Below are positions 26,347-30,219 of a stretch of 54,789 nucleotides of DNA, one piece after another. Source of the DNA: Promethearchaeota archaeon (GTDB lineage Archaea; Asgardarchaeota; Lokiarchaeia; Sigyniarchaeales; SOKP01); the NCBI GenBank assembly GCA_016840545.1, contig JAEOSD010000001.1:1-54789 (forward strand), read 5' to 3'. The translations under genes were made by a program, and so were the position numbers. The notes below the pieces were generated by a model. The model worked only from the letters and a program-made list of their open reading frames with translations. It was not told the origin of the DNA and made no database searches. Each line of letters opens with the position of its first letter. Positions within the stretch are counted from its first letter, which is position 1.

Positions 26347-27888
26347 ATGAGAACTTATGAAGATTATGTCCAAAGATTATATAAAATGAAACCAAATGTC
26401 TATATCGGTGAGGAAAAAGTTAGTCGAGACGATCCTCGCATAAAAGGGGGAATGAGAATTATAAAAGAAACTTTTGATAAAGCTCATGAACCAGAGTGGG
26501 AAGATATCTGTACTGCTACGAGTCATTTAACGGGTAAGAAGATTAATCGATTTTGTCATATTCATCAGAGTGAAGATGATTTATTAAAAAAACAGTTAAT
26601 GACAAGGCAACTTTGTCATCGCTGTGGGGGTTGTATTCAAAGATGCATGGGAATTGATTCACTCAATGCACTTTCAGTAATTACTTATGAAATGGACCAA
26701 GCACTTGGAACAGATCACTACATAAGATTTAATAAATACATGGAATATTTTCAAGAAAATGATCTTGTAGCTAGTTGTGCCCAAACTGATGCTAAAGGAG
26801 ATCGATTAAAAAGGCCACATGAACAAGAGGATCCTGATCAGTACTTGAGAGTAATCGAAACAAGAGAGCATGGTATCGTGGTTAGAGGATGCAAGGTTAA
26901 TATTACAAATACAGCTTATGCCGATGAGATGATAATTGTTCCATGCAGATATATGGGGCCCGAAGATAAAGATTATGCTGTAGCTTTCGCCTTACCAACA
27001 GATTGGGATGGTGTAAAATTACTTACTCGCCCTGCAAATTTCAGAAAAAGTAAATATGCTGAAGCTCCTGGTCTAGAGATTGGAGATTGTGAAACTTTTA
27101 TCATTTTTGATGATGTATTTGTTCCAAATGATCGCGTTTTCTTGAATGGTCATGGTGATCCAAGGCAAACTCCTTATGCGGGTTTCTTAGCCCTCATGTT
27201 TGCGCATTATCATCGCCATAGCTATACTGGTTGCAAACCAGCAGTATCTGAGGTAATTGCAAGTGCTGCTGCATTAGTGGCGGAATATAATGGCATTGAA
27301 AAGACTTCTCACGCGAGAGATAAAATATCTCATATTATAGGTACAGCTGAACTCGTGTTTGCTGCTGGAGAATCAAGCGCAAAGCATTCTGAAAAAGCAC
27401 CCTCAGGTACCCAAGTGCCAGATGAGATTCTTACAAATGCTGGAAGAAGACTTGCGGGGGAAATGATTTATGAGGAGTATAAAATACTAGCGGATCTTTC
27501 TGGTGGATTAATTGCAACATTACCTTTCGAGGAAACTTTTTATAGCGAAGAAGTTGGTGAGCTTGCTATGAAATACTTGCAACGAAATCCTCGTGTCAAG
27601 CCAGAGAATATATTGAGGTGTTTTAAAGGAATTGAAGGAATGGTTGTATCAGATCTCGCAGGGGTAATGCAGGTAGCGGGCTTACACGGAGGAGGATCAC
27701 CACAAATGGAAACAATAACAATGATGATGCGTTATGACACAGAAAAACTAAAAGATATAGCGAAATATCTATTTGGAATAAAGAAAAAGCTAAAACGGTA
27801 TGAACGCCCTACAGTGACCCCTAGAAAACAACTTGAAAAATTTAGAGAAGCAATGTTGAGAAAGAAAAATCAAGAACCAAACTGTTAA
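26347..27888 (+). CDS. 4-hydroxybutyryl-CoA dehydratase-family protein, divergent second paralogue
   Basis: 513 aa. The cluster ligands are retained (GGCIQRCMG and YHRHSYTGCK). It has a basic C-terminal tail of about 35 aa that is absent from the first paralogue. Confidence 0.8.
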   Translation: MRTYEDYVQRLYKMKPNVYIGEEKVSRDDPRIKGGMRIIKETFDKAHEPEWEDICTATSHLTGKKINRFCHIHQSEDDLLKKQLMTRQLCHRCGGCIQRCMGIDSLNALSVITYEMDQALGTDHYIRFNKYMEYFQENDLVASCAQTDAKGDRLKRPHEQEDPDQYLRVIETREHGIVVRGCKVNITNTAYADEMIIVPCRYMGPEDKDYAVAFALPTDWDGVKLLTRPANFRKSKYAEAPGLEIGDCETFIIFDDVFVPNDRVFLNGHGDPRQTPYAGFLALMFAHYHRHSYTGCKPAVSEVIASAAALVAEYNGIEKTSHARDKISHIIGTAELVFAAGESSAKHSEKAPSGTQVPDEILTNAGRRLAGEMIYEEYKILADLSGGLIATLPFEETFYSEEVGELAMKYLQRNPRVKPENILRCFKGIEGMVVSDLAGVMQVAGLHGGGSPQMETITMMMRYDTEKLKDIAKYLFGIKKKLKRYERPTVTPRKQLEKFREAMLRKKNQEPNC

Positions 27889-27937: not shown

Positions 27938-28900
27938 TTATAAAAGACACAAAACAAAGTATTGCTTTTCATTAATTGGTTCAATACCTAAATCCTTATT
28001 TTCATTTATGAAGTTATTAACTGCTACCCCTTTTTCATACAATTCGTTAAATTTTTCATGAAAAATCTTGTAAATACTACTATTCCTTGAGATATATGCC
28101 CCAATTAGTTTATTTGTTGGATCAAAACTAGGTTGAACTAATTCATCATCAGTAAGACAAAAGTTACTAAAATCATCATTAGTAACGTGAACATCAATAC
28201 TTTTAAATTCTAAATTATATTGATTAAGATGGTTAGTTAAAAATTTGAAATCTTCGCTTATTAATAGATCTTTGACTAATTCTGCATTAAAAATGACTTT
28301 AATGTCTAAATTTTTTACATTATCTTTAATTTTGATCATTCCATTCTTCATCGTATCCTTTAAATCTTCAGGCACGTGAGTCGGTCCTTGTTGTTTTACA
28401 ATAGTCATTAATTCATTGTCATATCTTATACCAATTGCAATTCTACATTCATTTCTAGCTGTAAAGGCATAATAAGTTTCATAAAGGTTATTCAAATCAT
28501 ATTTTATGAATTCTACAAATTCTTGGCTAATTTGATCGGTAAGTTGATACGATTTTAAAAAATCATCTAATGCAAATTCCGCTTTTTCCTTTTTTTCTTG
28601 AAATTCTTGCGATAATTCTTCTATTCGATTATTAATAATTTTTTGCCATATTGGAATTACAGGTGTAGCCAAGTGAATTTTCATTGGGCGATCATATATT
28701 TGGACAAGCTCTAAATCATTTAATACTGAGCAAATTTTATAACCTCTTTTTAAGGTGAGACCAAATTGAGAAGATACATCTTTTAAATTATCGATTCTAA
28801 CATTTTTTAATAAATAATGATATATTTTCTCGATGCCTTTTTCGATAACACCAATCGCATCAAATAAAGAACTGAGAGGTAAAAGTTCGCTGTCTTCCAT
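27938..28900 (-). CDS. TrmB-like protein: N-terminal winged-helix, coiled-coil linker, C-terminal effector-type domain
   Basis: 320 aa. The wHTH-like segment is IYHYLLKN...VSSQFGLTLKRGYKICSVLNDLELVQIYDRPMKIHL, followed by the Glu/Lys-rich helix IEELSQEFQEKKEKAE, as in TrmB-family regulators. Its ATG is 4 nt after the GTPase stop. The SD AGGTGA overlaps that stop. Confidence 0.5.
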   Translation of the reverse strand: MEDSELLPLSSLFDAIGVIEKGIEKIYHYLLKNVRIDNLKDVSSQFGLTLKRGYKICSVLNDLELVQIYDRPMKIHLATPVIPIWQKIINNRIEELSQEFQEKKEKAEFALDDFLKSYQLTDQISQEFVEFIKYDLNNLYETYYAFTARNECRIAIGIRYDNELMTIVKQQGPTHVPEDLKDTMKNGMIKIKDNVKNLDIKVIFNAELVKDLLISEDFKFLTNHLNQYNLEFKSIDVHVTNDDFSNFCLTDDELVQPSFDPTNKLIGAYISRNSSIYKIFHEKFNELYEKGVAVNNFINENKDLGIEPINEKQYFVLCLL

Positions 28901-28904
28901 AAGA

Positions 28905-29432
28905 TCACCTATTTTCCATCTTTTCTAACGTCAATTCTGTAAGTACTTCAAATGTTTTATTGACATTTTGTCCGGTTTTATTTGAGATTTCTCCAAATCC
29001 AGAGAAATTATTTCTTTCAGATATTTGAATACCAAAATCTCTTGTTATGTTACGTTGAGTATTTAAATCTATTTTTGATCCAACAAGTACTATAGGAATT
29101 CCGCCAGCTTTTTGTCTAACTATACTTACCCACTCGGGTATATTGTCTAAAGTCGGAGGGCGAGTGATATCATAGAGAAGAAAAGCAGCATTTGCTCCTA
29201 AACAGTATGTGGGAAGTAAAAATCTAAATCTTTCCTCTCCACCGACATCCCATATCTGCAATTTAATTTTTTTTCCATGGAGTTCTATAGTTTTAACATG
29301 AAAATCAACTCCAATTGTTAATCGCTCTGAGGGGTTGAAAATATTATAACAATATCTTTTAGTAAAAGAAGTTTTCCCTACAGATGCGTCTCCCAATAAA
29401 AGAATTTTAAATGTATAATCATATGTTGGAAT
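28905..29432 (-). CDS. Rab-like small GTPase (Ras superfamily)
   Basis: G1 GDASVGKTS, switch I TIGVDF, G3 WDVGGEERF, G4 VGSKID, G5 EISNK. RabF-like motifs are present: IGVDF, KLQIWD, RFRFLL, LLYDIT. The ORF track starts at TTG 29396, but the in-frame upstream sequence encodes PTYDYTFKILL (beta-1). The start is proposed at ATT 29430-29432, which has AGGTG 7 nt upstream. Confidence 0.9.
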   Translation of the reverse strand: MPTYDYTFKILLLGDASVGKTSFTKRYCYNIFNPSERLTIGVDFHVKTIELHGKKIKLQIWDVGGEERFRFLLPTYCLGANAAFLLYDITRPPTLDNIPEWVSIVRQKAGGIPIVLVGSKIDLNTQRNITRDFGIQISERNNFSGFGEISNKTGQNVNKTFEVLTELTLEKMENR

Positions 29433-29679
29433 ATTATAACACCTTTTTAAAAATGATTTATATCCTCAACCAAATTAATTTTTTGATTTTAGTGCTTTAT
29501 TCTTCATTTCTGCTCTGTCGCTGAAATAGTGCTTAATATATCTATTGATAGTTCTTTGATATTAGCTTATTATTATAATTAAAATTGTCTTTTTTAATTC
29601 TTTACTTTTCATAATAAGTTAGCGATAGTCTTAACTACTAAAAAATAAACCTTTCCAGTTGAATAAATTAGAAGAAAGA

Positions 29680-30219
29680 TTATTCTCCCAAAAAAATTTC
29701 CCTTAAGTTTTTATAAATAATTGGATTTAGCTCTTTATCTAAATGATTTTTTAATTCATTCAAAATAATAGGATTATCTCTAAAATTGGCGAGATACCTT
29801 ATTATACTCCAACGAACTGAATCATCTGGATCTTCCAATAGGGGTAATAAAAACTTAATATATTTAATATCATCATTTTCTTTAATTTTCATAACGGCAC
29901 GAGCACGTATAATAAAATCCGGATTATACAATTGAGGTAATAGATGATACTCAATAATTCCATTTTTTGTAAAATTTAATATGAATTGAAATAATTCCTT
30001 TTTAAAATTATGGGTTTGGTCCAATTCTTTTATGATACTTTCAATTGTATATTCAGGGATTTTATTTCCTAATTTTAGTAGACTTTCAAAGGAAATGAAA
30101 AAATTTTCCGAAATATCATACTTAAGATAATTTAAAAGCTTTTTAATAATTTTGTCGTTAACCTTTGAGACTTCTATTAAATCCCAGTTATCATCTTCCG
30201 TGTAATTTTTATTATCCAT
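29680..30219 (-). CDS. HEAT/PBS-lyase-type repeat protein
   Basis: 179 aa, all-helical. The C-terminal half has HEAT-like repeats: NPDFIIRARAVMKI and LLEDPDDSVRWSIIRYLANFRDNP. Confidence 0.55.
   Translation of the reverse strand: MDNKNYTEDDNWDLIEVSKVNDKIIKKLLNYLKYDISENFFISFESLLKLGNKIPEYTIESIIKELDQTHNFKKELFQFILNFTKNGIIEYHLLPQLYNPDFIIRARAVMKIKENDDIKYIKFLLPLLEDPDDSVRWSIIRYLANFRDNPIILNELKNHLDKELNPIIYKNLREIFLGE

Follow-up and report, generated by a model that had tools for sequence, protein, structure and literature searches.

Asgard archaeal genomes encode dozens of eukaryote-like small GTPases, the partners and functions of which are hidden and are rarely revealed by gene order (PMC10933270; 10.1101/2020.10.19.343400). 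In a survey of Asgard genomes most genes for eukaryotic signature proteins lay outside conserved neighbourhoods, the exceptions being ESCRT and an operon of LAMTOR1-like, Rab-like and DENN genes (10.1101/2020.10.19.343400). In MK-D1, genes for roadblock, longin or TRAPPC3 proteins generally do not share operons with the GTPase genes, and regulation by way of transcription factors has been suggested as a possibility (Tran et al. 2024, PMC10933270). Here we describe a locus in a 54,789-nt stretch of a Promethearchaeota genome (contig JAEOSD010000001.1; this whole stretch is called the window, and all coordinates are positions in it) at which a gene for a Rab-like GTPase is directly followed by a gene for a protein predicted to have the fold of the TrmB regulators, the two forming a fixed one-to-one pair. 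Each part belongs to a known kind, the GTPase to the Asgard Rab-like proteins and its partner to the regulators with a TrmB fold. Their combination is undescribed in the papers searched, and published full texts on Asgard GTPases with TrmB or winged helix yielded no account of such a pair.

MglA-MglB, for which operons of bacteria and archaea encode a Ras-like GTPase and a roadblock GTPase-activating protein, resembles this locus in that a small Ras-superfamily GTPase is co-transcribed with a dedicated partner of another fold. However, the partner described here combines a winged helix-turn-helix (wHTH) with a phospholipase D (PLD)-like domain instead of being a roadblock/LC7 protein, and its GTPase is Rab-like and not MglA-like. 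In the Streptomyces conservons CvnA-D, a small GTPase is linked to a putative DNA-binding wHTH protein. A comparable genetic link exists for the bacterial group-3 MglA proteins, the neighbour of which is a receiver+wHTH protein and for which a connection between GTPase and transcription has been proposed (Wuichet & Sogaard-Andersen 2014, PMC4316618). The conservons and the group-3 MglA systems differ from the present one in that they are bacterial, contain an MglA-type GTPase with a receiver+wHTH protein or consist of multiple components, and do not involve a TrmB fold.

The GTPase and its fixed partner gene

The GTPase gene, the partner gene and a HEAT-repeat gene further upstream are all located on the minus strand. 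The pair itself comprises the following features.

28905-29432, minus strand: coding sequence of the Rab-like small GTPase, 175 codons plus stop, from a proposed ATT start (29432-29430) to TGA (28907-28905)
28898-28910, minus strand: GTPase/partner junction AGGTGA-TCTT-ATG, read directly from the sequence, with the GTPase TGA inside the partner's Shine-Dalgarno (SD) sequence, AGGTGATC
27938-28900, minus strand: coding sequence of the partner protein, 320 aa

An earlier note on this DNA had proposed a dedicated pairing of the two genes, and conservation well beyond the window genome bears this out. In a scan of one genome per species, which gave 41 partner-encoding loci, the GTPase gene lies immediately upstream of the partner gene on the same strand at all 41, with identities to the window proteins of 69-97% for the GTPase and 48-94% for the partner. 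Five more distant partner homologues (about 28-34% identical where aligned) were looked up and each of them is preceded by a Ras-family GTPase; one of these pairs comes from Ca. Harpocratesius repetitus FW102, the genome of which is closed. At the distant loci the other neighbours have changed and the HpaB-family gene, which is found next to the pair in the window, is absent. The partner is also present downstream of the GTPase at 58 of 80 GTPase-anchored metagenome loci, the remaining loci having too little flank or carrying paralogues (63-76% identical) that occur, without a partner, as 360-480-aa multidomain open reading frames (ORFs) or in tandem GTPase arrays. No partner homologue without a GTPase was found, and the partner is the only gene that is strictly co-conserved with the GTPase. 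Where the source names of the loci are informative they are those of Lokiarchaeia or Promethearchaeota.

The junction between the two genes is as the earlier note had read it. The GTPase stop codon lies inside AGGTGA (28910-28905), which is followed by the 4-nt sequence TCTT and the partner ATG (28900-28898), and a junction of the form AGGTGA-N4-ATG or TAGGTGA-N-ATG is seen in most of the 41 genome loci as well as in most metagenome loci. The claim that the two proteins are almost certainly co-translated goes too far, since the overlap of a stop codon with a downstream SD sequence is a common operon arrangement (PMC2784483). The junction supports co-transcription and permits translational coupling, no more. 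Taken together, gene order and sequence conservation firmly support the view that the GTPase and the TrmB-fold protein form a dedicated, co-transcribed pair with a promoter block of its own. Such a pair of two small soluble proteins, which can be directly expressed and tested, is a rare case in the closest prokaryotic relatives of eukaryotes.

The GTPase is of the archaeal (Asgard) Rab-like type, as judged, after PMC4915359 and PMC10933270, from its Rab motifs, its short C-terminus without Cys and its Asgard origin. It matches Pfam Ras with E=3e-43, its closest solved structures are those of Rab30, Rab8A, Sec4, Rab3 and Rab11 with E~1e-36 to 1e-38, and its top 60 sequence matches in the PDB are Rab, Sec4 and Ypt proteins throughout (E 1e-33 to 1e-38), with MglA absent among these best matches. 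All of the Rab-like motifs listed in the earlier note (YDYTFKILLLGD, TIGVDF, KLQIWD, RFRFLL and LLYDIT) were located in the protein. RabF1 (IGVDF), RabF2 (KLQIWD) and RabF5 (LLYDIT) are present, RabF3 (RFRFLL) and RabF4 (TYCLGA) are partial matches, and of the nucleotide-binding motifs G1 (GDASVGKT), G2 (the T of RLTIGVDF), G3 (DVGG) and G5 (SNK, SSK or SAK) are present. The idea that the gene is a pseudogene was rejected, as its orthologues are 69-97% identical at the protein level and differ by synonymous changes in the N-terminal codons.

Switch II of the protein, WDVGGEERFRFLLPTY, reads DVGGEE and thus has Glu at the position of the catalytic Gln in the DTAGQE of Rabs, and its G4 motif is SKID. 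Both substitutions are real and do not result from alignment errors, because residue-level alignments to Rabs place WDVGGEERFR opposite WDTAGQERFR and VGSKIDL opposite VGNKIDL. The Glu (WDxGGE) is invariant in all relatives of the GTPase that were examined, those of the distant clade included, and is therefore a family-wide trait. In contrast, Ser or Ala in G4 is confined to the close (main) clade, more distant members having Asn or Thr. Moreover, the stretch GGE-x-RFRFLLP is unchanged even among GTPases that are 48-54% identical, and RFRFLLP(T/N)Y, which is specific to the family, is invariant in the distant clade as well. An invariant switch II of this kind implies a conserved binding surface. 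The C-terminus (...LEKMENR) ends about 10 residues past the G domain without a Cys, and a C-terminal Cys is found in none of the 41 orthologues. What had appeared as an unusual feature of the protein is in fact the norm, as archaeal Rab-like GTPases as a rule have no Cys for prenylation (PMC4915359, PMC10933270).

With RabF1, RabF2, RabF5, a short C-terminus and no prenylatable Cys the protein resembles the Asgard Rab-like GTPases described before (Thor-Rab, PMC10933270; Lokiarchaeum, PMC4915359). It differs from these by its invariant Glu, by RFRFLLP(T/N)Y in place of RFRSIT..YYRGA, by Ser or Ala in G4 in the main clade, by its fixed operon partner and by a start codon that is other than AUG at about 40% of loci. 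From eukaryotic Rabs it differs by lacking the switch II Gln, the G4 Asn (in the main clade), the C-terminal Cys and a hypervariable tail. In Ras, replacement of the Asn in NKxD lowers nucleotide affinity. Raised intrinsic GTPase activity has been reported for Ras Q61E, according to a citation in PMC2987813. Because of these two effects one may speculate, by analogy, that the main-clade GTPase could act as a fast-cycling sensor of the guanine-nucleotide pool.

A few observations on individual loci are added here. Switch I is extended by an insertion in two orthologues, KVFEPVPK in L036 and FKAIPK in L030, and the GTPase match at L030:5302-5854 is in two pieces, which suggests a frameshift or an assembly error. 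Paralogues with fused extensions or in tandem arrays are found at L100:528-1907, L108:2438-3883, L113:161-1420, L114:1823-3091, L120:1-1329, L123:2450-3748 and L126:926-2002. The C-terminal extensions of paralogous GTPases comprise 200-300 aa and have no Pfam match, a TrmB-fold partner is missing, and most of the paralogous GTPases that were checked have the GGE switch II. L126 shows a borderline match to the Gelsolin repeat (E 2.4e-4; 21.3 bits, the cut-off being 21). Six loci (L005, L006, L015, L021, L038 and L040) are labelled Hermod-, Hod- or Odinarchaeota and, in one case, Nanopelagicaceae bacterium, with partners 64-100% identical to that of the window. We considered whether labels of this kind (Odin-, Hod-, Hermod-, Thorarchaeota and 'Nanopelagicaceae') indicate a wider spread of the pair and rejected this, as the proteins are 58-94% identical to those of Promethearchaeota records. 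Because labels and identities conflict, we judge the labels of these metagenome-assembled genomes (MAGs) to be unreliable, and they look like the result of mislabelled bins or contaminated contigs.

The partner protein

The earlier note had described the partner as a protein with a TrmB-type wHTH, a coiled-coil linker and a C-terminal domain of about 200 aa. On the level of the fold this description stands, and the parts can be delimited as follows.

Residues ~20-78: wHTH with recognition helix LKRGYKICSVLN and wing YDRPMK
Residues 81-117: long helix of 37 residues in the AlphaFold model
Residues 129-320 (about 190 aa): PLD-like α/β C-terminal domain without HKD motif and with the conserved sequence LxQPSFDPxNxLxG

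An AlphaFold (AF2) model of the protein, built on a 23-member alignment of the family (A1), has a predicted local distance difference test score (pLDDT) of 89.9. When it was compared with the PDB by Foldseek, eight chains of TrmBL2 led the matches (E 3.5e-12 to 4e-11, about 296 columns), followed by the PLD-fold nucleases Zucchini, NucT and Nuc, which match the C-terminal domain (E~1e-4); the sugar-binding domain of TrmB (2f5t) was matched with E 5.7e-3. With a wHTH, a coiled-coil helix, a PLD-like domain and a full-length match to TrmBL2, the modelled protein has the architecture of TrmB, and the C-terminal domain, which the earlier note had left to be identified, proves to be PLD-like by Foldseek.

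The partner shares with TrmBL2 and TrmB (5bpd, 5box, 2f5t) the N-terminal winged helix, the long helix and a PLD-like domain without catalytic residues, and some JGI records carry its homologues under the title 'sugar-specific transcriptional regulator TrmB'. It differs from them in that the likeness comes from the fold model, the protein having no significant sequence match and belonging to a small family of its own, and in that its gene always lies downstream of a Rab-like GTPase gene and not beside genes for sugar transport or glycolysis. The family comprises 520 sequences at 90% clustering and, in a set of 1.84 billion proteins, no more than 47 clusters at 50% identity; nearly all members are 313-353 aa long, and those with names come from Lokiarchaeia or Promethearchaeota MAGs.

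Invariant or nearly invariant in the family are K51, R52, Y54 and K55 of the recognition helix, R71, P72, M73 and K74 of the wing, and the LxQPSFDPxNxLxG loop. The last of these stands in place of the HKD motif (HxKx4D) of PLD superfamily enzymes, which is absent from the partner, and the 23-member alignment contains no invariant His. Within the loop Q256, P261 and G267 are invariant and S258 is nearly so. Neither Pfam nor fold comparison gave a match of the partner to roadblock/LC7 or longin proteins, which confirms that it is of a type other than the roadblock, longin and MglB partners usually discussed for archaeal small GTPases. Nor did Pfam, profile and Foldseek searches detect any known fold of a GTPase-activating protein (GAP) or guanine nucleotide exchange factor (GEF).

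Two other relationships were considered and rejected. A match of residues 189-256 to the Ras-binding domain Ras_bdg_2 (E=0.0017) is below threshold and occurs in only 3 of 23 family members, and it was discarded because the region is part of the PLD-like α/β domain and does not have a ubiquitin-like fold. Kinship with E2F/DP proteins is suggested by sub-threshold matches only (Pfam E2F_TDP in 12/23 members, best 2.3e-4); E2F/DP entries are absent from the Foldseek list of the partner, and its C-terminal domain is PLD-like and not of the marked-box type. The recognition helix LKRxYKIxxVLxxLxL (residues ~40-75) does resemble the RRxYD helix of E2F/DP, and E2F8 aligns with both of its winged-helix repeats to the partner profile at E=0.42. 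The stretch around LxQPSFDPxNxLxG (residues ~250-285) is weakly matched by Legionella lpg1496 (E 0.077) and, at sub-threshold level in 12/23 members, by DUF6879.

Start codon and promoter block

Two further elements of the locus lie upstream of the G domain and are conserved in their own right.

29430-29448, minus strand: translation start region of the GTPase, with SD sequence AAAAAGGTG at 29448-29440, a 7-nt spacer and ATT at 29432-29430
29555-29611, minus strand: conserved non-coding promoter/operator-like block, AAAGTAAAG-AATTAAAA-aagacaa-TTTTAATT-ATAATAATAA

Translation of the GTPase likely initiates at the ATT codon. No ATG or GTG is found in frame between the upstream stop codon and the P-loop, and the sole TTG (29396), at which the mechanical ORF begins, lies inside strand β1 (LLLGD), which must itself be translated because the Pfam Ras alignment extends from FKILLLGD onward. 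Three positions ahead of YDYTFK the orthologues have an ATG, an ATA or, in the clade of the window, an ATT codon, and in the wider clade of the window the start codon, be it ATT, ATA or at some loci ATG, follows a conserved AAAGGTG by 6-8 nt. At four loci (L003-L006) an in-frame stop codon is located 1-2 codons upstream of the proposed start, so that no alternative start is left. Moreover, the codons after the proposed start differ synonymously among orthologues (CCA/CCT/CCG, TAT/TAC, GAT/GAC), and the residues that they encode must thus be under selection at the protein level. The tally for 115 loci is ATG 60, ATT 31, ATA 14, TTG 5 and GTG 1, that is about 39% AUU or AUA; the non-AUG pattern was noted in the window, in L001-L018 and in L049-L086. 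Other candidate starts were rejected. The ATG at 29425-29423 is out of frame and runs into a stop after 14 codons, the β1 TTG is missing in L003-L006, L009 and L018, and an in-frame GTG is limited to the L010-L017 group and belongs there to the SD sequence.

AUU initiation of the infC type is known in bacteria. It resembles the present case in that a conserved AUU stands behind a good SD sequence, which would imply deliberately weak or regulated initiation; the present case differs in that the module is archaeal, that AUA is used too and that the start is a predicted one. Archaeal aIF1 is reported to discriminate against non-canonical start codons (PMC6237735). The contrast between a weak AUU or AUA start and the 8-nt SD sequence (AGGTGATC) plus AUG of the partner suggests that less GTPase than partner is made. 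A conserved start of this kind would also lead automated annotation to truncate the GTPase at the internal TTG or to miss it altogether, and the pairing may have stayed undescribed for this reason.

The promoter/operator-like block contains a perfect 8-bp inverted repeat, AATTAAAA-N7-TTTTAATT, at 29577-29599, 144-167 nt upstream of the ATT. When the 300 nt preceding the start codon at 23 loci were aligned with MAFFT, the sole strongly conserved block was AAAGTAAAG-AATTAAAA-N7-TTTTAATT-ATA(T/A)ATA(T/A)AA, the remainder being divergent. The palindrome has a single exact match in the window. With at most one mismatch it is found 45 times in 788 kb of loci, and 44 of these sites are at the GTPase promoter position, 117-167 nt upstream of the GTPase start. 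Its spacer is more variable than its arms, a contrast that is in part due to the way the sites were selected. Further copies within the window are not significant: five were found at up to two mismatches against 1.9 expected, and 5 of 100 shuffled sequences reach that number. A TATA-like run directly follows the right arm, so that a protein bound to the palindrome would be expected to overlap the core promoter. No Rfam family was matched in the whole window, and the long 5' region of the GTPase gene thus contains no known riboswitch or leader. Among the features of the sequence, the conserved palindrome is the best support for a role of the pair in transcription.

Possible roles of the pair and the gene neighbourhood

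But what would a Rab-like GTPase and a TrmB-fold protein do together? We tentatively favour, with somewhat less than even confidence, a DNA-binding regulator of the TrmB fold which controls its own operon and to which a GTPase switch is coupled, the two being a candidate two-gene signalling module of Lokiarchaeia. The first gene would provide a soluble, non-prenylated Rab-like GTPase with an invariant switch II Glu and the RFRFLLP(T/N)Y surface, and the second gene a protein with a winged-helix DNA-binding head, a long helix of the dimerisation type and a catalytically dead PLD-like sensor domain. A dimer of the partner would bind AATTAAAA-N7-TTTTAATT beside the TATA-like element in the promoter of the module itself. 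In classical TrmB the ligand is a sugar, and here the GTPase would act in its stead, docking on the partner in one of its nucleotide states and altering its DNA binding, by which the GTP/GDP state would be turned directly into transcription. The weak AUU or AUA start of the GTPase, as opposed to the strong SD sequence and AUG of the partner, might keep the GTPase sub-stoichiometric or separately controllable. Physical contact, DNA binding, dependence on the nucleotide state and autoregulation are thus what we infer for the pair. The more specific idea that the Rab-like GTPase gates the DNA-binding protein directly, with no intermediates and with the weak start codon setting the ratio of GTPase to regulator, we regard as doubtful; if true, it would amount to a switch leading from GTPase to gene in the lineage of archaea nearest to eukaryotes. 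Should the partner be an effector that binds DNA, Lokiarchaeia would have at least one Rab-like GTPase that serves in gene regulation rather than in membrane traffic, which would caution against taking Asgard GTPase counts as a measure of endomembrane complexity.

Several points weigh against a transcriptional switch of this kind. The profile search for TrmB_N that the earlier note had called for gave no TrmB or wHTH match in Pfam at E<0.1 for the window protein, although Pfam TrmB (PF01978) appears below threshold in 13 of the 23 family members (best 9.3e-5), and the profile of the 23-member family finds nothing significant among PDB sequences, neither TrmB nor TrmBL2. The palindrome is recognisable in the main clade only (partner at least ~62% identical) and is missing upstream of the GTPase in those clades the partners of which are less than 60% identical, even though the recognition helix is conserved there, so that a protein-binding role of the wHTH fits equally well. 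The operator is thus deduced from one clade. In addition, 15 bp separate the half-site centres of the palindrome, an unusual distance for the operator of a simple wHTH dimer, and AT-rich palindromes are common in a genome as AT-rich as this one. Finally, the wider synteny, including the HEAT, amidohydrolase and HpaB-family genes, is also kept in the close clade, and adjacency of the two genes within that clade is for this reason weak evidence when taken alone.

The conservation of the wHTH in the absence of the palindrome leads to a first alternative, in which the GTPase has in its partner a dedicated regulator or effector, be it a GAP, a GEF, a scaffold or a protein similar to a guanine nucleotide dissociation inhibitor (GDI), which uses its wHTH and its dead PLD-like domain as protein surfaces and has no role in transcription. 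In trafficking complexes of eukaryotes, ESCRT-II for example, winged helices serve to bind proteins. Recognition helix, wing and QPSFDP loop are invariant across clades among which no shared upstream DNA motif is seen, the switch II of the GTPase is equally invariant, and a GTPase with Glu for Gln may need a non-canonical catalytic partner. Moreover, TrmBL2, the best structural match, is no classical ligand-controlled regulator, as far as the title of its PDB entry tells. Yet a wHTH combined with a dimerisation helix and a PLD-like domain is the architecture of the DNA-binding proteins of the TrmB family, the conserved basic residues of the partner lie exactly on the canonical DNA-contact elements, the promoter region of the operon contains a conserved palindrome, and no known GAP or GEF fold was detected. 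We consider this alternative unlikely, if worth keeping in view.

In a second alternative, to which we assign a similarly low probability, the partner is an ordinary TrmB-like autorepressor that senses a small molecule, and the GTPase is mere cargo of the operon, the two proteins never touching each other. The C-terminal region of TrmB is a sugar-binding domain (2f5t), a metabolite could be bound by the conserved QPSFDP...G pocket that replaces HKD, regulators of prokaryotes often share a transcript with the genes that they control, and the promoter palindrome would suit simple autoregulation. However, such a repressor would not readily account for the strict one-to-one pairing, which holds down to ~28% identity of the partner at loci where every other neighbour is different. 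The family of the partner is very small and limited to the GTPase context, without a homologue found apart from a GTPase, and the invariant, family-specific surface of switch II speaks for a protein partner of its own. That the adjacency merely reflects inherited synteny without a functional link and that the upstream block is simply a strong promoter is very improbable, for although synteny in the close clade extends to the wider neighbourhood, the pair persists where the neighbourhood does not and the 4-nt junction with its overlapping SD sequence and stop codon is maintained.

The genes flanking the pair in the window are listed below.

29680-30219, minus strand: HEAT-repeat protein of 179 aa, Pfam HEAT_2 E=1.8e-8
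26347-27888, plus strand: HpaB_N/HpaB-family gene of the 4-hydroxyphenylacetate hydroxylase / 4-hydroxybutyryl-CoA dehydratase type, Pfam 1.3e-87

The HEAT gene had been placed 283 bp upstream of the GTPase gene on the same strand. Its identity and its strand hold, but the distance is 247 nt when counted from the ATT, the larger figure having arisen because the mechanical ORF began at the internal TTG (29396). This spacer carries the conserved promoter-like block, and the HEAT gene is probably a transcription unit separate from the pair. A HEAT homologue occurs in the upstream flank of about 33 of the 41 loci, and at two distant loci HEAT_2 proteins (L044:1836-2627 and L046:988-1800) are encoded 1-3 genes (2.5-5 kb) upstream. 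The association is thus loose but recurrent, and the HEAT protein may perhaps be a third component of the module.

The HpaB-family gene is arranged tail-to-tail with the partner gene at about 30 of the 41 loci and not in the distant clade. In that clade, which includes Ca. Harpocratesius repetitus, a homologous protein of ~205 aa with no homologue in the window is encoded divergently and immediately upstream of the GTPase (L042:68-697(-), L044:2639-3274(-) and L046:3538-4149(-)). As judged by eye it has two hydrophobic stretches resembling transmembrane segments near its N-terminus, and a role as the module's membrane component is conceivable.

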